Part shown: piece after piece, positions 34,915-63,122 of the stretch
How positions within the stretch are numbered: the stretch's first letter is position 1
Layout: every line of letters begins with the position of its first letter
Made by a program: the position numbers and the translations under genes
Notes under the pieces: model-generated
Told to the model about the DNA's origin: nothing
Seen by the model: the letters and a program-made list of their open reading frames with translations, nothing else
Databases searched by the model: none
From: Oscillospiraceae bacterium
GTDB lineage: Bacteria > Bacillota > Clostridia > Oscillospirales > CAG-272
Direction of reading: 5' to 3'
NCBI GenBank assembly: GCA_015065385.1
Contig: SVQK01000056.1
Coordinates: 270,983 to 334,982, forward strand
Length of the DNA: 64,000 bases

Positions 34915-37900
34915 ATGTACTTCAAAAAGCTGAAAATCAACGGTATTGAGTATGAAATGGAAACCCATATTGTCGGAGAGGAGGATCCCACCTCCGAGAC
35001 CGAAGGCAATCTGGGCCAGTTCTATTACAACTCGAATACCGGCATCTTCTGGAAGTGTACCTATTCCGAGGATGGCGTGTACTCTTGGGAAGAGTTCAGC
35101 ACGACCGCCTTTGATGAAGTCACGATGGATGAAGAAACCCGGCTTCTCCATTTCCTGAAAAATGGGGAAGATGTAGTCGATCCTGTGTACATCGCGGGAG
35201 GCGGCGGAGGCAGCGGAGGCGGCAGCGGCAACAATGCCGTCCTCACCGTTACAAACATGACCGGATGGCTGGCGCATACGATCAGCACCGGCGCGGACTG
35301 CTATCTGTCTATCGACTGGTCTTCCCTCGAAAATGAGATGGAGACCGGCGCGGGCATCCTGACGATCCGCGTGAACAACGTGGTGAAGCGGACGCTGGAC
35401 ATTTCTCAGGGGACCGTCCGGATCAACCTCAAGGATATTCTTGCGACCGGATCCAACAAGGTCAAGCTGACCGTAACCGACGTGTACGAGAACACGAAGT
35501 CGATCACCTTCACAATCAAGTCCGTCGATCTGCGGCTGGCAAGCTCGTTCTCCACGGTTTCCGAATTCACCGAGGGCGAGGCTGTCGTATTCACCTACAC
35601 GCCCTACGGCTCCGTTTCCAAGACCACGCATTTCGAGGTGGACGGAGCGGATGCCGGGACGCAGGTTGTGACGGCCTCCGGCAGACAGCAGAGCTACACC
35701 CTCCCGGCCATGGCCCACGGCGCGCACAGCCTGAAAGTCTGGTTCACGGCTGAGATCGACGGGGAGGAAGTGTCCTCGAACGTCTTATGGTTTGACATGA
35801 TCGTGGTCGGGGATTCGACCGCGCCGATCATTTCGACCTCGTTCCGCACCTCCGAAGCCGTGCAGTACGAAACCCTGTACATCAAATACCGCGTCTACAC
35901 CCCGAACAGTCTGACGTCCGTTGTCAGCCTGTATTCCGGGAACACGAAGATCACCGATCTGACCGTGGACCGGACGGAACAGACATGGACCTATCGCTGC
36001 GACGGATACGGGGAGCTGAATCTTTCGATCCGGAGCGGAACCGCCGTCGTGAATTTCGTGATCGACGTGGAGCAGTCCGACATTGACACGGAGCCGGAGG
36101 CCGACTCCCTCGCCCTGCATCTTTCGAGCTACGGGCGATCCAACAACGAGGAGCATCCGGAGGTCTGGAAGGACGAAGAGCACAACATTTCCTGCCAGCT
36201 CACGGGATTCAGCTACGTTGCAAACGGATGGGTCGCGGACAAGGACGGCAACACCGTCCTTCGCGTCTCCGGAAACGCCCGCGTGACGATCCCGTACAAG
36301 CCCTTCGAGAGAGATTTCCGCACCACGGGCAAGACGCTTGAGTTTGAGTTTGCGACGCGGGATGTGCTGGACTACGACGCGGTGCTGGTTTCCTGCATGA
36401 ACGGAAACCGCGGATTCGAACTCACGTCCCAGCGGGCAACGCTGAAATCCGAACGGTCGGAGATTTCCACGCAGTACAAGGAAGACGAGCACGTCCGGAT
36501 TTCCTTTGTGGCGGAGAAGAGAACCGAAAGCCGCCTGATCTACGTTTACATCAACGGCATCATGTCCGGCGTGGTGGAGTATCCGGAAGACGACGACTTC
36601 TCCCAGCAGTCTCCGGTGAACATCACCATCGGCGCGAACACCTGCACGACCGATCTATACAACATCCGGGTCTACGACAACAACCTGACCCGGTTCCAGA
36701 TCGTGAGCAACTGGATCGCCGACACGCAGAACATCACGGAAATGCTGGCCCGGTACGAGCACAACAACGTGTACGACGAATACGGGAATGTCGTCATTTC
36801 CAAGCTGCCGAAGGATCTGCCGTACATGATCATCGAGGCGGAGGAACTTCCGCAGTACAAGGGCGACAAGAAGACGGTTTCCGTGGAGTACACCGACCCC
36901 GTAACCCCCGGCAGGAGCTTCACGGCGACCGGATGTCAGGCAAACGTACAGGGGACGTCCTCCGCGCCATACGCCCGGAAGAACTACGATATGCAGTTCA
37001 AGGCGGGATTCGTTCTCGCGGACAAGTCCTCGGCGGAAAACTACGAGCTGGCCCCCGGAATCATCCCCTTCAACCGTTTCGTTCTGAAAGCGGATGTGGC
37101 GTCCTCGGAATCCGCAAACAACGTGGAGCTGGTGAAGCTGTTCTGCGAGGCCGATCCCTACAAACGCCCCGAAGAACTGTCGAATGCTAAGGTCAGAAAG
37201 GGTATCTACGGCTTCCCGATTGTGCTGTTCTGGCGCAATCCTGCGGACGGTTCGGAACAGTTCATGGGGAAGTACAACTTCAACCTGCCCAAACGTGCTC
37301 CCGGCCCCTACGGGTACAGCGGAGACATGGAGTCTTGGGAGTTCCAGAACAACACCTCCAACCTCATGCTTTTCCTGAGCGACTATTTCTCCGAGGCACC
37401 TCAGGCTGATCCCTCCACCGGAGAGGTCAAGGCCGCATGGCGATATGATTACGAAGCGCGTTTTCCCTCCGACGAATGGGTGGACTACTCCAAACTTCAG
37501 GAGTTCCAATCCTTTGTCTTCTCGACCTACCGGGCCGGGGCGACGGGGAATGATCTGGAAACGCCCGTGACCTATCAGGAGACCCATACCGTCTATGATG
37601 AGGTGGTGGATCCGGAAACCGGAGCTGTGGACTATGTGGAGCGGCTTGTGACGGAGGATGTGACCTACACCAAGGATACGGCGGAATACCGTCTATCCCG
37701 CTTCCATCATGAGTTCGGTAAATATGCGGAGGTGGATTCGTTCCTCTTCTACTACATCTTTACCGAATTGTTCCTGATGGTGGACTCCCGTGCGAAGAAC
37801 CTGTTCATCGGCTTCTCGGGCGGGCCGACGTCCGGCCTGACCCACCTCGACCGCAAGGCCGTTGCAGAGCCTTACGACATGGACACGGCGATAGGTACGA

Positions 37901-40899
37901 ACAACGAGGGCTCGCTGGTTTTTGACTACGGTCTCGAAGACACCGACCACCTCGCGGGCGGCGCGGATGTATTCAACGGCCAGAATTCTGTCCTCTGGTG
38001 CAACCTGAGAGACGCTTTCTCCCGCGAGATCGCGCAGATGTATCAGTCCCTCCGCTCGGCGGGCGTTCTGTCCTACGCGACAGTTTCTGCACGGTTTACC
38101 GATCACCAAGCCAAATGGCCGGAGGCGATCTTCAACGACGATGCGCAGTTCAAATACCTCGACCCGCTGGTGAATCCCGATCCCGGCAAGGAGCCTACGG
38201 CCGTCTACCTGCCCATGCTTCAGGGATCCAAGGCGGAGCAGCGGAAATGGTGGCTCTACAACCGGTTCCGCTACATGGATTCCAAGTGGAACGCCGGGGA
38301 CGCGCTGACGGACGTGATCCAGCTCAGAGGCTACGCCAAGGCGGATATCACGGTCACGCCCTACGCGGATATTTACCCGACCATCAAATACGGTTCCGTT
38401 CCTGTTCAGGCGAGAGGAAAGCATGGCGTTCCCCAGACGCTGGCCTGTCCCCTCGATAACGTGAACGACACCGAAATCTATATCTACTCCGCCTCCCAGC
38501 TTGCCTCAGTTGGAGATTTGTCCGGGTTGAAGGTCGGTTTCGCTGACTTCTCCAAAGCGACGAAGCTCCAGTCCATCAAGGTTGGCTCGGACGAGGCGGG
38601 ATACACAAACCAGAACCTTACGGGCCTGAGTGTGGGTACGAACCCGCTTCTCGGATCCGTGGATGCCCGGAACTGCACAGCCCTTGTCGGTACGGTGGAT
38701 CTGTCGGGTGCGGCGAACGTCGAAACCGTTCTTCTGGAAGGAACTGCCGTTACCGGTGTTGCCCTTCCGAACGGCGGCATTCTGAAAACGCTCCACCTGC
38801 CCGGTACGGTGACGAACCTGACCGTGCGGAACCAGCCGGGGATCACGAGCTTCGTCATGCCGGACTACGAGAATATCACGACCCTCCGCGTGGAGAACAG
38901 CCCCGGAATCCCGGTGGAAGACATTCTCGCCGAGATCCCGGAAAACAGCCGCGTCCGCATTCTCGGTTTTGTCTCCGAAATGACGACGGTCGAAGAGGTG
39001 GATGCGTTCTACGCGCGCCTCGACACCATGCGCGGCCTCGACGAATCGGGCGGAAACGTGGACACCGCGGTTGTGGCAGGGAAGATCACGGGGCTCGACA
39101 CGATCACGGGCGCATGGCTCGCAGACAAGCTCTCGAAATACCCGAACATCGAGATCGAATACCAGCACATCACCAGCAGTCTGCGGTACTACAACTACGA
39201 CGGTTCGACGCTGATCACCACCGAGACCATCACGGACGGCGGCGACGGAACATACTCCGGCACTCCGTCCAGAAGCTCGACGGCACAATACAGCTACACC
39301 TTCGTCGGCTGGAACCGGAACAAGAACGCGACCGCGAAGGACAGCAGCGCGACCAAGGCCGTGACCGCCGACCGGGACGTTTACGCGGCCTATACGGCCA
39401 CGGTGCGGACGTACACGATCACATGGAAGAACAGCAACGGAACCGTTCTCGAGACGGACAACAACGTGCCTTACGGATCCACGCCGAGATACAACGGATC
39501 GACGCCGCAGAATCCCGACAGCTCGGGCGGCGCGTTCCGCGGATGGACACCCACGGTCACGACCGTCACCGGGAACACGACGTACACGGCTTCCTATGTG
39601 CCGAAGTATGACGTGAAGTTCTACAACGGTTCGACCCTGCTCCAGACGGTTTCCGTTTTGGAAGGAGGAACGGCGGTATATACCGGAGAGACTCCGGTTG
39701 ACGCGGGCGGAGCCGAGTTCCTTGGATGGGCGGCTTCGGCCGGTCAGCACTCCGCGGACGCCAATATTCTGAAGAATATCACGGCGAACAAGAGCGTCTA
39801 TGCGGCGTTCAAGTCTCCGATTGAGGTTCCCACGGCGACGACTGCGGAGGGGGCTTACGGTGTGGAATGGAACTACGGGGCGACGGCAACCACCCTGACA
39901 AGAAAGGGGCTGGCAGCTTCGTTCGGCAATCCCGTTCCGGCCGATTCCCTCACCGGTTCCGGATCCTCTCCGTTCGATACGGTTGCGCCGTGGAAGGACA
40001 TGAAGCGGTACAACGTAATCGACGGGGCGGTCTCGTATTCGCAGGACGACGCCGGATACTCCGAAACGGACTACGATACCGTGGTCTACATCCCGGAGTT
40101 TTATTACACGGCCTACAAAGACACCGCCGATTCCAAGTGGCTGTGGGCGATCTCTCCGACGCCGCTTGAGGGTTTTGTGAAGCACCCCGGTTCCGGTCGG
40201 TACATCGGGCGGTTCCACACCTCCGGAAGCTCGTCCGGTGTATTCTCGAAATCGGGCGCTGCTCCGCTGGCGAACACCACCCGTGCGAACTTCCGGATGT
40301 ACTCCCACAACAAAGGCGAAAAGTGGCGTCAGCTCGACCTCGCGGCGTGGTCTGCGCTTCAGATGCTCTACCTTGTGGAATTTGCGAACTTCTATTCGCA
40401 GAGCACACTCGGGACGGGCTATGATACCGGATCGGTCGGCACGATGGGCGAGACCGGCGAGGCGGCTTACCATACGCTGAAACGCTCGAAGGCGCACAAT
40501 ATGTACCGCTGGATCGAAGATCCGTTCTCGAATGTTCTGGACTGGTGCGACGGCTTTGTCGCTTCATCCAGAGCTGCCTACACCAGCATCGACTACGGGA
40601 GCTACAAGGATACAACCACGGGCATGGATAAAACCGGCATCACGCTCCCGAGTTCGAACTATATTTCGGGATTCGGATACAGCGCGGAAGCGCCTTATGC
40701 GTTCATCCCTGATAAAGCGTCAGGAGCAGAAACAACCTACGTTACAGACCGCGTCTACTCGAACACCGGGACTTGCGTCCTGTACGTCGGCGGTAGCTGC
40801 AACGCGAACGCGGACTATGGGTTCTTCTGCTTCGGCGCCTACCTCTCGGCTTCGAACACCTACGCCAGCTTCGGCTCCCGCCTCCTTTATATCCCTTAA
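34915..40899 (+). CDS. Giant receptor-binding tail fibre (1994 aa): CotH-like, LRR, Listeria-Bacteroides-type repeats and a C-terminal C-type-lectin/FGE-like domain carrying the DGR VR
   Basis: CotH-like: FVLKADVASSESANNVELVKLF...GFPIVLFWRN...GKYNFNLPK...LFLMVDSRAKNLFI. LRR: LTGLSVGTNPLLGSVDARNCTALVGTVDLSGAANVETVLLEGTAVTGV.... Repeats: YSYTFVGWNRN...YTITWKNSNGTVL...YDVKFYNGSTLL...FLGWAAS. CLec-like end: NMYRWIEDPFSNVLDWCDGF...VLYVGGSCNANADYGFFCFGAYLSASNTYASFGSRLLYIP. Confidence 0.85.
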   Translation: MYFKKLKINGIEYEMETHIVGEEDPTSETEGNLGQFYYNSNTGIFWKCTYSEDGVYSWEEFSTTAFDEVTMDEETRLLHFLKNGEDVVDPVYIAGGGGGSGGGSGNNAVLTVTNMTGWLAHTISTGADCYLSIDWSSLENEMETGAGILTIRVNNVVKRTLDISQGTVRINLKDILATGSNKVKLTVTDVYENTKSITFTIKSVDLRLASSFSTVSEFTEGEAVVFTYTPYGSVSKTTHFEVDGADAGTQVVTASGRQQSYTLPAMAHGAHSLKVWFTAEIDGEEVSSNVLWFDMIVVGDSTAPIISTSFRTSEAVQYETLYIKYRVYTPNSLTSVVSLYSGNTKITDLTVDRTEQTWTYRCDGYGELNLSIRSGTAVVNFVIDVEQSDIDTEPEADSLALHLSSYGRSNNEEHPEVWKDEEHNISCQLTGFSYVANGWVADKDGNTVLRVSGNARVTIPYKPFERDFRTTGKTLEFEFATRDVLDYDAVLVSCMNGNRGFELTSQRATLKSERSEISTQYKEDEHVRISFVAEKRTESRLIYVYINGIMSGVVEYPEDDDFSQQSPVNITIGANTCTTDLYNIRVYDNNLTRFQIVSNWIADTQNITEMLARYEHNNVYDEYGNVVISKLPKDLPYMIIEAEELPQYKGDKKTVSVEYTDPVTPGRSFTATGCQANVQGTSSAPYARKNYDMQFKAGFVLADKSSAENYELAPGIIPFNRFVLKADVASSESANNVELVKLFCEADPYKRPEELSNAKVRKGIYGFPIVLFWRNPADGSEQFMGKYNFNLPKRAPGPYGYSGDMESWEFQNNTSNLMLFLSDYFSEAPQADPSTGEVKAAWRYDYEARFPSDEWVDYSKLQEFQSFVFSTYRAGATGNDLETPVTYQETHTVYDEVVDPETGAVDYVERLVTEDVTYTKDTAEYRLSRFHHEFGKYAEVDSFLFYYIFTELFLMVDSRAKNLFIGFSGGPTSGLTHLDRKAVAEPYDMDTAIGTNNEGSLVFDYGLEDTDHLAGGADVFNGQNSVLWCNLRDAFSREIAQMYQSLRSAGVLSYATVSARFTDHQAKWPEAIFNDDAQFKYLDPLVNPDPGKEPTAVYLPMLQGSKAEQRKWWLYNRFRYMDSKWNAGDALTDVIQLRGYAKADITVTPYADIYPTIKYGSVPVQARGKHGVPQTLACPLDNVNDTEIYIYSASQLASVGDLSGLKVGFADFSKATKLQSIKVGSDEAGYTNQNLTGLSVGTNPLLGSVDARNCTALVGTVDLSGAANVETVLLEGTAVTGVALPNGGILKTLHLPGTVTNLTVRNQPGITSFVMPDYENITTLRVENSPGIPVEDILAEIPENSRVRILGFVSEMTTVEEVDAFYARLDTMRGLDESGGNVDTAVVAGKITGLDTITGAWLADKLSKYPNIEIEYQHITSSLRYYNYDGSTLITTETITDGGDGTYSGTPSRSSTAQYSYTFVGWNRNKNATAKDSSATKAVTADRDVYAAYTATVRTYTITWKNSNGTVLETDNNVPYGSTPRYNGSTPQNPDSSGGAFRGWTPTVTTVTGNTTYTASYVPKYDVKFYNGSTLLQTVSVLEGGTAVYTGETPVDAGGAEFLGWAASAGQHSADANILKNITANKSVYAAFKSPIEVPTATTAEGAYGVEWNYGATATTLTRKGLAASFGNPVPADSLTGSGSSPFDTVAPWKDMKRYNVIDGAVSYSQDDAGYSETDYDTVVYIPEFYYTAYKDTADSKWLWAISPTPLEGFVKHPGSGRYIGRFHTSGSSSGVFSKSGAAPLANTTRANFRMYSHNKGEKWRQLDLAAWSALQMLYLVEFANFYSQSTLGTGYDTGSVGTMGETGEAAYHTLKRSKAHNMYRWIEDPFSNVLDWCDGFVASSRAAYTSIDYGSYKDTTTGMDKTGITLPSSNYISGFGYSAEAPYAFIPDKASGAETTYVTDRVYSNTGTCVLYVGGSCNANADYGFFCFGAYLSASNTYASFGSRLLYIP
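40750..40887 (+). repeat. DGR variable repeat (VR), last ~46 codons of the fibre gene
   Basis: 138 nt colinear with the TR. I count 15 mismatches by eye, 14 of them at positions where the TR has A. Confidence 0.9.
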
Positions 40900-40907
40900 G
40901 GGGGACC

Positions 40908-40925
40908 GGGGGTCGCAACCCCCGA
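40908..40925 (+). promoter_or_regulatory. GC hairpin just 3' of VR (candidate DGR target-recognition hairpin)
   Basis: CGGGGGT cgca ACCCCCG: 7-bp stem with a 4-nt loop, 21 nt after the VR end. Confidence 0.55.
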
Positions 40926-41061
40926 GAGCTTAAAGCTCAGGCAAAACAAACAGCAAAGCAAACACAACAAACGCAACGGAAGTCCATATCCGTCCGCGCA
41001 CAGCGGTCGGATATGGGATTTCCCGGGATTCCCTGCGCAGTGGAGCGGTGCTTGTATCCTT

Positions 41062-41199
41062 CGCGTCAACTCGAACACCGGGACCTGCGTCCTGTACGTC
41101 GGCGGTAACTACAACGCGAACGCGAACTATGGGTTCTTCTACTTCAACGCCAACAACTCGGCTTCGAACACCAACGCCAACATCGGCTCCCGCCACCTT
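41062..41199 (+). repeat. DGR template repeat (TR)
   Basis: Non-coding copy of the VR, rich in AAC triplets (translates as RVNSNTGTCVLYVGGNYNANANYGFFYFNANNSASNTNANIGSRHL). It lies 119 nt upstream of the RT gene. Confidence 0.9.
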
Positions 41200-41318
41200 G
41201 TTCATACGGTTTGTGATATGCGCGCAGGGCTTTCCGTACCACTTGGTAAAAATATCGCCGCAAGGAGAGTGTTTAGTAGGACTATCTCGAAAAACGCTCA
41301 GGCGAACAAGGAGAAAAG

Positions 41319-42398
41319 ATGCCAAAAAGAATTGGATTTCTCTACGACAAAATGTGCGACAAGGTTTTCATCCGAACCGCCATCCTCGAAGGCGCGGTCG
41401 GAAAACACAAGCGGGCCGACGTGAAAGCGGTTCTCGAAGATCTTGACGGCTATGTGAACAAGACATACGAAATGCTGGTGAACCGCGCTTATGTTCCGAC
41501 GCCGCCGAGATCGAAGCGGATCTACGACAAGACCTGTCAGAAAGAGCGGACGATCCAGATTGTCCCGTACTTCCCGGACGGAATCATGCACTGGCTCTGC
41601 GTCAAGGCGATGCGGGGCGTTCTGATGCGCGGGATGTACCGCTGGAGCTGCGCGTCCATACCGGGCCGCGGGAACAAATGCGCATGGAGCTATGTCAAGC
41701 GCGCTTTGAAGAAGGATCCGAAGGGGACGAAATACTGTCTGAAGATGGACATCAAGAGCTACTATCCATCGATCAGGCCGAAGCGTCTGATCTGGGCCCT
41801 GGCCCGCAAGATCAAGGACAAGCTGTTTCTGAAAACCGTTTACAGCATAGTGGCTTCGAATCCGGATCCCGGAATCGCGGTCGGTTTTTACATCAACCAA
41901 TGGCTCGCAAACTATTTTCTCGAACCGCTCGACCGGCTGATCTGCTCCCTTCCCGGTGTCAAACACTACGTGCGGAACATGGACGACATGGTAGTATTCG
42001 GGTCGAGCAAACGGGATCTGCACCGGGCGCGGGCGAAAATCTCCGAGTTCCTTTTGGATCGTCTTTCTCTGGTGCTGAAAGGGAACTGGCAGGTATTTCC
42101 CGTGGACGGGCGCGGCGTGGACTTCATCGGCTATCGGTTCTTCCACTCGCACACCGCTTTGAGGCGGAGGAATTTCCTGCGCTTCATCCGGCAGTGCCGC
42201 AGGGTGGCCGGGATGGCCGCGGACGGGATCGCCATTCCATTTCACGAGGCGTCAGGTCTTCTCTCCCGGGCCGGTTCGCTGAAACACTGCGACTGCGCGG
42301 GCGCCAAGCGGCGGTATCTGGACGAGGGAGTCAGCGTCGGGCGGCTGAAACGGGTCGTGAGAGAACATGATCTGCACCTCCGCCTGACGACCGCATAG
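41319..42398 (+). CDS. DGR reverse transcriptase
   Basis: 359 aa. RT motifs: KERTIQIVPYFPDG, YCLKMDIKSYYPSI, IAVGFYINQWLANYFL (near-match to the DGR-type [LIV]GxxxSQ), YVRNMDDMVVFG (YxDD box) and GVDFIGYRF. Confidence 0.9.
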   Translation: MPKRIGFLYDKMCDKVFIRTAILEGAVGKHKRADVKAVLEDLDGYVNKTYEMLVNRAYVPTPPRSKRIYDKTCQKERTIQIVPYFPDGIMHWLCVKAMRGVLMRGMYRWSCASIPGRGNKCAWSYVKRALKKDPKGTKYCLKMDIKSYYPSIRPKRLIWALARKIKDKLFLKTVYSIVASNPDPGIAVGFYINQWLANYFLEPLDRLICSLPGVKHYVRNMDDMVVFGSSKRDLHRARAKISEFLLDRLSLVLKGNWQVFPVDGRGVDFIGYRFFHSHTALRRRNFLRFIRQCRRVAGMAADGIAIPFHEASGLLSRAGSLKHCDCAGAKRRYLDEGVSVGRLKRVVREHDLHLRLTTA

Positions 42399-42409
42399 GG
42401 AGGGCGCGC

Positions 42410-42670
42410 ATGAATACAGCGGAGATCATCGACAAGCTCTGTTCCATCACGGAGGAGCAATCCAGAATCATCCGGGAACAGTTTCTGTTCATCCGGAACT
42501 GTCTCGCCGTCGATCAATCCGTACTCGAACACTTTGAAGGCATGATCAAGCCGGTCGAGGACGCCCTCGATCTGGCGGAGTATTCTCTTCGGCGCGACAG
42601 AAATTCATCGGACGGCCCGGATCCGTCCGGGCGCGAAACGGCAAACAACGAATCAGGAGGCAACTCATGA
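42410..42670 (+). CDS. Acidic helical 86-aa protein of unknown function (not Avd-like)
   Basis: ORF directly after the RT gene. It is coupled to the next gene by an ATGA overlap. Confidence 0.55.
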   Translation: MNTAEIIDKLCSITEEQSRIIREQFLFIRNCLAVDQSVLEHFEGMIKPVEDALDLAEYSLRRDRNSSDGPDPSGRETANNESGGNS

Positions 42671-43086
42671 GCGAATGGGTAAAGTTTTTCCTCGGCGGGG
42701 GCGTCGCCCTGTCCATCGTCGAAGGCGTGAAAGCTCTGATCGGCTGGCTCATCAAGAGGAAAGCCGCGAAGGAAGACCGCGCGGAGGACAGGGCGGAGCG
42801 GAAGATGGAGGAGCGGATGGCGAAGATCGAGGGGCGCGTCGCCGATCTGGAAGGCCAGCAGGGCAAGATCGTCGACTCCCTCGAGCTGCAAAGGGAGACA
42901 AACATCTATGTTCTGTACGACCGGATCCGCTATCTCTCAAAGTGCTATATACAGGACGGGGAGATCAGCTTTGAGGACAGGGATTCGCTGAATCAGATGC
43001 ACACGGTTTATCACCGGAATGGAGGCAACGGGAACTTGGACAATGTGATGAAGCTGGTGAACGAACTGCCGCTGAAGAAAGGATAA
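42667..43086 (+). CDS. Membrane-anchored coiled-coil protein (lysis-associated candidate)
   Basis: N-terminal TM segment WVKFFLGGGVALSIVEGVKALIGWLI, then a charged coiled coil. It lies immediately upstream of the endolysin. Confidence 0.55.
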   Translation: MSEWVKFFLGGGVALSIVEGVKALIGWLIKRKAAKEDRAEDRAERKMEERMAKIEGRVADLEGQQGKIVDSLELQRETNIYVLYDRIRYLSKCYIQDGEISFEDRDSLNQMHTVYHRNGGNGNLDNVMKLVNELPLKKG

Positions 43087-43094
43087 GGTGGATC

Positions 43095-43841
43095 ATGGAA
43101 TACACAAACAGTCCGCTGGTGAGCTACATGCAGCTCAGCCCGAACCATTCCGGATTGAGAACCCACAGCATCGACCGCATCTCCCCGCATTGTGTGGTGG
43201 GCCAGTGTTCCGTAGAGACGTTGGGCAACATATTCGCGCCGGTCTCTCGACAGGCCAGCTCCAACTATGGAATCGGTGTGGATGGAAGGATCGCCATGTA
43301 CGTCGAAGAGCAGAACCGTTCGTGGTGTACATCCTCCAAAGACAACGACCAAAGGGCGGTCACGATAGAGTGCGCGTCCGATACCACCGATCCCTATGCG
43401 ATGAACGGTTCCGTTTACGCATCCCTTGTGAAGCTCTGCGCGGATATATGCCGCCGAAACGGGAAGAAGAAGCTGGTCTGGATCCCGGACAAGGACAAGG
43501 CTCTGGCGTACAATCCGAAGACTGACGAAATGCTCCTAACCGTCCACCGGTGGTTTGACAGTCGGAAGTCCTGCCCCGGAGACTGGCTGTATAACCGCCT
43601 CGGAAACCTCGCTGTGGAGGTTACAGGGCTTCTTGCCGACCCCGTTCCAGCCCAGCAGACCGGAACACCGGGAGATGGAAATACGCCCCATAAATGGGCT
43701 GACGAGGCTGTAAAATGGGCTGTGACGAAGGGGATCCTGAAAGGATCGTCCTCCGGCGCAAAGGACTACAGGCTGAACGATCCCGTAACCCGCGAAGAGG
43801 TTCTGACGTTCATCCATCGTGCAATGAAGGGAGGCGATTGA
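43095..43841 (+). CDS. Endolysin: N-acetylmuramoyl-L-alanine amidase (Amidase_2/PGRP type) with a C-terminal SLH domain
   Basis: Amidase_2-like: RISPHCVVGQ...NYGIGVDGRIAMYVEEQNRSWCTSS...AVTIECASD. SLH-like: HKWADEAVKWAVTKGILKGSSSGAKDYRLNDPVTREEVLTFIHRAM. Confidence 0.85.
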   Translation: MEYTNSPLVSYMQLSPNHSGLRTHSIDRISPHCVVGQCSVETLGNIFAPVSRQASSNYGIGVDGRIAMYVEEQNRSWCTSSKDNDQRAVTIECASDTTDPYAMNGSVYASLVKLCADICRRNGKKKLVWIPDKDKALAYNPKTDEMLLTVHRWFDSRKSCPGDWLYNRLGNLAVEVTGLLADPVPAQQTGTPGDGNTPHKWADEAVKWAVTKGILKGSSSGAKDYRLNDPVTREEVLTFIHRAMKGGD

Positions 43842-62660: not shown

Positions 62661-63122
62661 ATGGAGAAAATAGCGAGTTTCAAAATCAACCACGACATGC
62701 TGACACGAGGGTTGTACATCTCCCGCGTTGACGGAGATGTCATTACCTACGACCTCCGGATGAAACTGCCCAACGGTGAAGACTACCTCGCTCCCGCTGT
62801 GGCACACACCCTTGAACACCTTCTTGCCACCTACCTGCGGAACTCGGAGATTGGAAACGAGGTGGTGTACGTCGGTCCGATGGGGTGCAGGACCGGGTTT
62901 TACATATTGTTACGGGACACCGTAAGCCCTGAAGCAGCTATCGTGGAAATCTACACGGCCCTGTGCGTCGCCGCGAATTACATGGGCGACATCCCCGGAG
63001 CGACGAGAGCCGAGTGCGGGAACTACAGGGATCACGACCTCGTGGGGGCGAGAATAGAGGCCCGTAAGATGCTCCCCATTCTGCGTATGTGGACAAAGGG
63101 TCAACTAAAGTACCCCGAATAA
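62661..63122 (+). CDS. luxS: S-ribosylhomocysteine lyase (autoinducer-2 synthase)
   Basis: SFKINHDML, the metal-binding HTLEHLLA, PMGCRTGFY and CGNYRDHDL are colinear with E. coli LuxS (HTLEHLFA, PMGCRTGFY, CGTYQMHSL). Confidence 0.9.
   Translation: MEKIASFKINHDMLTRGLYISRVDGDVITYDLRMKLPNGEDYLAPAVAHTLEHLLATYLRNSEIGNEVVYVGPMGCRTGFYILLRDTVSPEAAIVEIYTALCVAANYMGDIPGATRAECGNYRDHDLVGARIEARKMLPILRMWTKGQLKYPE

Follow-up and report, generated by a model that had tools for sequence, protein, structure and literature searches.

A compact prophage diversity-generating retroelement without an Avd gene: a reverse transcriptase and a conserved RT-18 RNA as its likely working unit

Here we describe a diversity-generating retroelement (DGR) in a 64,000-nt stretch of DNA from an Oscillospiraceae bacterium (contig SVQK01000056.1). 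The whole stretch is called the window below, and all coordinates are window positions (Table 1). The locus is a real DGR with no gene for the accessory protein Avd in its cassette. We consider it probable that it is a functional, compact element with the order target gene, template repeat (TR) and reverse transcriptase (RT) gene, known as Architecture A, carried by a prophage of a Clostridia-type host between a tail-fibre gene and a lysis cassette. Its working unit is likely the RT together with one structured RNA; that the RT acts alone, and the site at which it is primed, we infer. The original prediction, made from the letters of this DNA, proposed that the element works without Avd, or uses a non-homologous accessory factor, or relies on an Avd encoded outside the window. 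The first of these options is the best supported, since no Avd was found in the window or among the open reading frames (ORFs) downstream of the RT gene in relatives, there is no room for a gene between the variable repeat (VR) and the TR, the RNA lacks the stem-loop that Avd binds, and the VRs of relatives have recently changed at adenines.

The VR and the TR could be aligned without gaps over about 139 nt at an offset of 312 nt, with 15 mismatches, 14 of which fall on TR adenines. The single remaining mismatch is a C in the TR (41085) against a T in the VR (40773); non-canonical differences of such kind between TR and VR have been reported in other DGRs (Wu et al., PMC5758913). The 3' end of the VR lies 9 nt before the stop codon of the target gene (40897-40899), and both repeats there share GGCTCCCGCC, the initiation of mutagenic homology (IMH in the VR, IMH* in the TR), directly after which they diverge. 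The C-terminal 399 aa of the target protein matched the PHROG family phrog_5302, annotated 'tail protein' (E 3.7e-61), and no match to the target protein was obtained in Pfam or in a sequence search of the PDB. The best PDB match of the RT was bRT, the RT of phage BPP-1 (8ub7, E 1.4e-21). The catalytic aspartates are kept, with NMDD in place of YMDD, and residues R77, V188, G189 and Q194 align to R74, I181, G182 and Q187, the residues through which bRT contacts the incoming nucleotide and the template base (10.1101/2023.10.23.563531). Compared with bRT, the RT has 31 extra residues, most of them C-terminal, and no added domain is visible in its sequence. The features that place the locus among the DGRs are an RT of the DGR clade, an adenine-biased TR/VR pair, a VR at the 3' end of the target gene, an IMH/IMH* pair and a hairpin after the IMH alone.

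Relatives of the RT were drawn from IMG/VR, where the best 80 of 416 confirmed relatives (37-67% identity; L001-L080) were used; 57 distinct loci had enough upstream DNA for the architecture to be counted. All 57 had the order target gene with VR, spacer, TR and RT gene; the VR and the TR lay 67-316 nt apart, and about 113-190 nt separated the TR from the RT gene. VR-TR gaps of this length leave no room for a gene there in any relative. In the window, the distance from the end of VR homology to the start of the TR is 173-174 nt and holds no credible ORF, in agreement with the 174 nt without an ORF noticed originally; the ORFs touching this gap are out of frame or on the minus strand and matched neither Pfam nor PHROG. 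The accompanying view that the architecture and the VR-TR spacing are unusual did not hold up; the architecture is the rule in this lineage (57/57) and had been described in the literature (PMC5758913). In the survey of Wu et al. (2018), 74% of 372 DGRs had avd and 75 of the 372 were counted as Architecture A (TR-RT, without an accessory gene); the authors noted an avd-less lineage and searched the genomes of avd-less DGRs for avd with a profile, unsuccessfully (PMC5758913). A DGR without Avd is not new: roughly one in four catalogued DGRs has no avd, and an entire lineage of this kind was noted in 2018. Comparison with the Architecture A1 DGRs of that study revealed the same target-TR-RT order, the same absence of avd, HRDC, MutS-like (MSL) and CH1 genes from the cassette, an IMH/IMH* pair and a Bacillota or phage context. 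We found no essential difference, and RNA structure is not described in that paper. Genome matches assigned the hosts of the lineage to Oscillospiraceae, Ruminococcaceae, Clostridium, Bacillus and Lactobacillaceae. These comparisons make the locus a typical representative of a large lineage, known before, of compact avd-less DGRs in phages of Firmicutes.

To look for Avd, all ORFs between 70 and 220 aa in the window, 194 on the two strands together, were scanned against Pfam, with the Avd of BPP-1 as positive control. The control matched PF22296 (bAvd) with an E value of 7.3e-36. None of the 194 window ORFs matched PF22296 and the minus-strand ORFs matched no family at all, thereby bearing out the observation that no recognisable Avd lies near the RT. 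HRDC and MutS-type families were absent among the 25 Pfam families listed (of 42) for plus-strand ORFs of the window, and the absence of CH1 from the cassette was judged from size and context, there being no public CH1 model. Similarly, no Avd was present among 39 representative ORFs downstream of the RT gene in relatives, where holins, tail chaperones and structural or tail proteins were found instead. Since no frame is open throughout the TR-RT spacer across the lineage, an overprinted protein is excluded. A basic ORF of 132 aa (41048-41446) was considered as a cryptic Avd and rejected; it had no Pfam match, and in many relatives no frame is open at that place.

The spacer that separates the TR from the RT gene carries an RNA element of the Rfam family RF03021 (RT-18). 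The match scored 73.3 bits against a gathering score of 41.3, covered model positions 1-84 of 84 and ended 5 nt before the RT start codon; RT-18 was present in the same place in 15 of the 16 relatives tested. Weinberg et al. (2017) described RT-1 to RT-19 as motifs near RT genes, tied only RT-10 to a DGR and speculated that some RT motifs belong to DGRs (PMC5737381). The element in the window shares with RT-18 as defined there a full-length match immediately upstream of an RT gene. Unlike RT-18 as defined, it lies between a TR and a DGR RT and is extended by two covarying long-range helices outside the Rfam model. RF03022 (Phage_DGR, formerly RT-10), on which the BPP-1 spacer scores 104.7 bits and whose model opens with an 11-bp 5' stem-loop, had no match in the window even at E values up to 5. 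In a chromosome of [Clostridium] asparagiforme (RT 35% identity), RT-17 stands upstream of the RT gene instead of RT-18, and the RT-17 model also scores 32.6 bits on the window. Several of the 'RT-n' motifs may be the DGR spacer RNAs of different lineages.

We aligned 33 distinct segments reaching from the end of the TR to the start of the RT gene, from loci whose RTs are 37-67% identical. The segments are strikingly conserved for non-coding DNA. Six helices were supported both by RNAalifold and by a pair count on a specified structure; 92.8% of the cells were paired in the proposed structure as compared to 40-45% when the partners were slid by 1-3 columns, double-sided changes occurred in 28 of 38 pairs, and the observed values were reached by none of 500 shuffles. 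RNAalifold and the minimum-free-energy fold of the single sequence arrived at the same helices independently. The first is a helix of 14 bp that closes the TR, its strands being GGGAUUCCCUGCGC, immediately upstream of the TR, and GCGCAGGGCUUUCC, on the downstream side; it is seen in the lineage as a GGGAU motif with GCRC...AUAUUCC. It has changed on both sides in 11 of its 14 pairs (31 sequences), and was also recovered by an inverted-repeat search and by folding the window alone. Its duplex energies lie typically 2-5 standard deviations below those of shuffles, with L039, L056 and L073 near chance. Directly after it come a tetraloop hairpin, YACC-NCUU-GGUR, followed by AAAAU, and a long interrupted stem with the internal loop UAGUAG/CGAAA. 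This loop is a sarcin-ricin motif that also occurs in RT-10, where it was confirmed by cryo-electron microscopy (Roll and Zirbel 2026, PMC13085918).

In a further long-range helix, 8 nt at the TR's 3' edge, CCUUGUUC, pair with 100% complementarity to GAACAAGG, which lies shortly ahead of the RT start codon. Five of the eight pairs in this helix have changed on both sides, 91.5% of the cells are paired, and RNAalifold found it as well. This TR-edge pairing could be a relocated or permuted template:primer duplex, or a device that couples translation of the RT to use of the RNA. An adenine beside the helix was considered as a mark of the cDNA start; it differs between TR and VR, yet is fixed across relatives, and so does not mark that start.

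The spacer of BPP-1 begins, right after the TR, with an 11-bp Avd-binding stem-loop (Sp3-33) and a primer strand (Sp47-56) that pairs with the TR 3' end. Sp59-70 then pairs with an upstream segment of avd, and is followed by a stem-loop (Sp71-78), A-minor adenosines (Sp79-81), a single-stranded 'thumb ring' (Sp82-94) and the bRT-binding stem-loop (Sp95-139) (10.1101/2023.10.23.563531). The RNA in the window has the same duplex of the TR flanks, short tetraloop hairpin, adenosines, single-stranded stretch and long RT-binding stem with a sarcin-ricin-type loop, its strand at 41025-41038 corresponding to the avd-side strand in the cPRT-Stop duplex of BPP-1. The complement of the TR edge is placed differently; it follows the RT-binding stem and lies over the RT ribosome-binding site here, whereas in BPP-1 it precedes the stop strand (Sp47-56). 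At the level of the whole element, both transfer sequence from TR to VR adenine-specifically into a tail-fibre gene, both have a GC hairpin after the IMH, and their RTs are homologous. In contrast to BPP-1 (mtd-avd-TR-brt, Architecture B), the window cassette has neither an avd gene nor an Avd-binding stem-loop after the TR, and its spacer RNA scores as RT-18 and not as RF03022. The comparison of the folded DGR RNA with the Sp elements of BPP-1, suggested originally, was therefore answered in part; the stop duplex, the hairpin, the A-run and the RT-binding stem have counterparts, and the Avd-binding stem-loop has none.

In the window, positions 41200-41240 folded no better than shuffles (z +0.66), and in relatives only a linker of 10-25 nt separates the TR edge from the stop strand. 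No hairpin of at least 6 bp follows the TR in any of 57 loci. An RNA without an Avd-binding stem-loop would fit an element that never sees Avd. These findings also bear on the possibility that an Avd, HRDC or MutS-like accessory is encoded elsewhere in the host chromosome, or otherwise beyond the window, and acts in trans. Pfam matches to baseplate, tail-chaperone and cement-protein families mark the window as a genome of phage or prophage type, and since an identical RT gene also occurs on a contig of 0.2-1 Mb, it is a prophage, with host genome beyond the window in which such a gene could reside; moreover, avd, TR and brt of BPP-1 work in trans from a plasmid (PMC5758913). However, the structure and linker of the RNA speak against a partner of this kind, as do the lack of Avd on both strands of the 64 kb, the lack of HRDC among the families listed and the fruitless genome profile search of avd-less DGRs by Wu et al. 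(PMC5758913). In addition, the whole phage-borne lineage lacks Avd although phages move between hosts. We regard an accessory acting in trans as unlikely.

The gene immediately downstream of the RT encodes an acidic protein of 86 aa, and the fact that it begins 12 nt after the RT stop codon would suit a non-homologous replacement of Avd. The earlier description of this ORF as acidic and not an Avd was correct. It has a pI of 4.5, no Pfam match and a match to phrog_29601, a family without an assigned function (E 1e-8). Its single-sequence structure model (pLDDT 77.7) consists of two long helices, forming a hairpin of about 65 residues, and a disordered tail; a Foldseek search of the PDB with this model gave a best E value of 0.76 and no Avd among the 50 matches listed. 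In L001 and L005, the closest RT relatives, a weakly similar acidic ORF of 64 aa occupies the same position (phmmer E 0.003), and an acidic accessory protein, CH1, has been described in other avd-less DGRs (PMC5758913). CH1 of the Bacteroides avd-less DGRs (Wu et al. 2018) and the 86-aa ORF are alike in being small, acidic (pI about 4.5-4.7) and motif-less and in lying beside an avd-less DGR. As far as the description of CH1 allows, they are set apart by its length of 160-169 aa and its conservation with DGRs, whereas the 86-aa ORF is half that size and tracks lysis genes.

A role as accessory factor is opposed by the distribution of the 86-aa ORF. No match was obtained by tblastn in the 80 RT relatives, a pattern search in IMG/VR gave no relatives, a word-based protein search returned only a 98% identical copy, and DNA and protein searches of GenBank phages with the cassette and the 86-aa ORF gave no matches. 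An exhaustive HMMER search revealed 14 remote homologues of 49-104 aa. In L162 and L163 the genes directly after the homologue are a 120-aa ORF and an M23/SLH endolysin, and a distant RT lies two genes off; in L047 the homologue lies directly before a homologue of the 139-aa ORF of the window, with a tail-assembly chaperone between it and the RT. Thus in L047 and L162 the homologue stands apart from the RT and stays with the next gene and the endolysin. In L167 it precedes an r1t holin and an amidase, and in L168 its neighbours are a tail protein on one side and a lysozyme on the other, and the 8-kb locus has no RT. In other relatives the ORFs found after the RT encode tail chaperones and holins. 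Since the homologues track lysis genes, and one of the loci has no RT, the 86-aa ORF is judged not to be an accessory factor. We conclude that it is a gene of the tail-to-lysis junction and not a part of the DGR; the originally proposed non-homologous factor was not borne out in this ORF and is, in our estimate, extremely improbable.

We looked for signs of activity in 27 pairs of relatives with identical TRs. Their VRs differed at 377 sites that are adenines in the TR and at 25 other sites, where adenines account for 19% of the TR. Between L014 and L018 there is no difference in the 600 nt upstream, the spacer or the RT gene (flanks of more than 1.8 kb), yet six VR positions differ, every one a TR adenine. 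Adenine-only VR differences between near-identical relatives also occur among L016-L045. Such adenine-specific turnover of the VR between near-identical relatives indicates that the helper-free lineage is active. An inactive relic, in which Avd was lost and the repeats persist, could account for the identical VRs of two loci with an identical RT (L171 and L172) and for the one TR-VR mismatch outside adenines. It is nevertheless very unlikely, as the RT frame and catalytic motifs are intact, 14 of the 15 mismatches are adenine-specific, the flanking RNA has been kept with compensatory changes down to 37% RT identity, and relatives of the same architecture show very recent adenine-only changes in the VR.

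A helper could also be a housekeeping protein of the host, such as a basic RNA chaperone or a ribosomal protein, that partners the RT and needs no dedicated gene in the cassette. The Avd of BPP-1 has no part in the chemistry; it positions the template:primer duplex and binds RNA (10.1101/2023.10.23.563531), so that another nucleic-acid-binding protein could substitute for it, and the lineage is confined to Bacillota hosts. Yet the sequence gives no pointer to such a factor, and the BPP-1 counterparts of the conserved RNA elements all contact the RT and not Avd. We consider a host partner fairly unlikely. A more specific form of the helper-free reading is that, in the RT-18 lineage, the RNA itself took over the job of holding the template:primer duplex from Avd, the TR-edge strand having moved to the 3' end of the spacer, so that the 359-aa RT and about 300 nt of RNA suffice, and translation of the RT and use of the template are mutually exclusive. 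We offer this tentatively, as a possibility about which we are more doubtful than confident.

On the reading that RT and RNA form the working unit, the RT would bind the structured RNA, and cDNA would be primed in cis near the 3' edge of the TR. The RT would misincorporate opposite adenines, and synthesis would stop at the TR-closing helix. The cDNA would then replace the VR, guided by the IMH and the GC hairpin at 40907-40924. Several points weigh against this reading. Avd is essential in BPP-1 (PMC12875486), and we found no experimental test of a natural Avd-less DGR with the RT alone in the literature. L171 and L172, which reach into the VR, have a VR identical to that of the window, so that nothing points directly to ongoing activity in this phage. 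For the TR-closing helix, the 5' strand was placed by choosing the best duplex partner, which tilts the pair counts in favour of the structure. The covariation of the TR-edge helix largely tracks two phylogenetic groups and may reflect few events, and the TR-edge pairing might serve translational control and not priming. The CA-rich tract and the inverted repeat of the VR-TR spacer find no explanation in the comparative data. Finally, the Avd negatives cover the 64-kb window, and the host genome extends beyond it.

Within the literature searched, three aspects go beyond what is described: the identification of RT-18 with the RNA that flanks the template in a DGR lineage lacking Avd, the pair of covarying long-range helices and the selective absence of the Avd-binding element. 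The orphan Rfam motif RT-18 is now tied to DGR function. In the RT-18 lineage the RNA elements that contact the RT in BPP-1 are kept and the one that contacts Avd is missing, and the adenine-specific turnover of the VR between near-identical phages points to a helper-free design that works in nature. The lineage is a good system for asking what Avd is needed for, and the question of what replaces Avd becomes testable with one protein and one RNA. If RT and RNA suffice, the lineage would provide engineered targeted mutagenesis with a chassis less complex than BPP-1.

The first of the three elements noticed in the VR-TR spacer is the GC hairpin, which the original prediction had likened in form to the hairpin of BPP-1. 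The likeness was upheld, with coordinates shifted by one base (40907-40924). In 50 of 57 distinct relatives a hairpin built on a G5-N4-C5 core, with a stem of at least 6 bp that varies at its flanking positions, lies about 20-25 nt past the VR; after the TR such a hairpin is never found. Target-site hairpins or cruciforms after the VR are known from BPP-1 and Legionella (PMC3240598; PMC5758913), and the hairpin of the window is assigned as the conserved DGR target-site hairpin/cruciform. At 40897-40924, the stop codon of the target gene lies inside a conserved CCCC-TAA-GGGGG, which gives the order G5-N3-G5-N4-C5 in nearly all relatives L001-L080; in this order two G-runs compete for one C-run.

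The CA-rich tract and the 9-bp inverted repeat reported for the spacer are both present (40942-40977 and 40984-41016). The tract has a predicted free energy of 0 kcal/mol. Its sequence is not conserved, and relatives have at most loose A-rich counterparts; the linker of L006 is similarly A/C-rich, and in other relatives an A-rich linker directly precedes a -10 box. The inverted repeat, together with its inner stem, has 14-nt arms with 93% complementarity and folds at -25.1 kcal/mol (z = -6.4), a value that none of 200 shuffles equalled. It has no counterpart in the spacer of any relative and is therefore specific to this phage. We also considered it as a repeated operator; the window holds a single further exact copy of the arm, and copies with one mismatch are mildly in excess, which does not speak for or against such a role. 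A tandem duplication, GGGATTTCC / GGGATTCCC (41015-41033), repeats the start of the 5' strand of the TR-closing helix; the first duplicate of the GGGAU motif (41015-41023) overlaps the 3' arm of the phage-specific hairpin. A 14-nt direct repeat links 40932-40945 with 41293-41306; a rough estimate puts the chance expectation for a match of this kind at about 0.3.

Upstream of the TR, relatives have a conserved motif, GGGAU(A/U)U...GUGC, in many cases with a TATAAT-like box 8-10 nt before it, and several have a terminator composed of a hairpin and a T-run further upstream of the box. Among closer relatives, L001, L002, L007 and L008 have a GC hairpin with a T-run and then a TATAAT-like box 8-10 nt before GGGAU. 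The DGR RNA of those relatives probably has its own promoter and starts at GGGAU. The GGGAU motif is present in the window at 41025-41038. A scan of 40600-41500 found no sigma-70-type promoter, and one weak terminator-like site on the minus strand was at chance level. The CA tract and the strong hairpin occupy the place where relatives carry the terminator and the promoter. We guess at two roles for them, that of a linker and that of a 5' boundary or stabiliser for a DGR RNA made by read-through.

Table 1. Features of the DGR locus and its neighbourhood (window positions).
Feature	Position	Strand	Basis or remark
DGR target gene, 1994 aa, tail-fibre-like, VR at C-terminus	34915-40899	+	ORF, phrog_5302
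VR	40750-40888	+	ungapped TR alignment; GC-rich IMH at 3' end
GC hairpin, 7-bp stem, loop CGCA	40907-40913 / 40918-40924	+	19 nt past end of VR homology
CA-rich tract, T-free	40942-40977	+	predicted unstructured
Inverted repeat, 9 bp + inner 4-bp stem	40984-40992 / 41008-41016	+	abuts 5' strand of TR-closing helix
TR-closing helix 5' strand, GGGATTCCCTGCGC	41025-41038	+	inverted-repeat search, minimum-free-energy fold
TR	41062-41200	+	IMH* at 3' end
TR 3' edge, CCTTGTTC, where TR-VR homology ends	41196-41203	+	pairs with 41304-41311
TR-closing helix 3' strand, GCGCAGGGCTTTCC	41222-41235	+	inverted-repeat search, minimum-free-energy fold
RT-18 RNA (Rfam RF03021)	41237-41313	+	hairpin TACC-ACTT-GGTA, A-run, long stem with UAGUAG/CGAAA internal loop
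Partner of TR 3' edge, GAACAAGG	41304-41311	+	overlaps RT ribosome-binding site AAGGAG (41308-41313)
DGR RT, 359 aa	41319-42398	+	phrog_1423, E 2.7e-92; RVT_1 (Pfam)
86-aa acidic helical ORF	42410-42670	+	pI 4.5; starts 12 nt past RT stop codon
139-aa membrane/coiled-coil ORF	42667-43086		follows 86-aa ORF
Amidase endolysin	43095-43841		follows 139-aa ORF
Non-credible ORF touching spacer	40532-40933	+
Non-credible ORF touching spacer	41048-41446	+
Non-credible ORF touching spacer	40896-41078	-
Non-credible ORF touching spacer	40930-41325	-

In relatives with RTs of 37-42% identity, an acidic ORF of 52-274 aa, not found in the window, overlaps the RT stop codon by 7-58 nt (L050, L053, L054, L056, L059, L061, L063, L064, L066, L068, L069, L072-L074 and L078). 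These ORFs share the N-terminal motif Y-x-x-IPEFGQ-x-VEY-x-TQ, and some have CBM5/12-like C-termini; in L046 and L047 a Phage_tail_APC chaperone stands in their place. The overlapping ORF looks like a tail protein that is translationally coupled to the RT. Elsewhere in the window, an ORF of 153 aa at 62661-63119 (+) matched LuxS (S-ribosylhomocysteinase, PF02664) with an E value of 3.5e-44, a gene for an autoinducer-2 synthase within a phage or prophage window.

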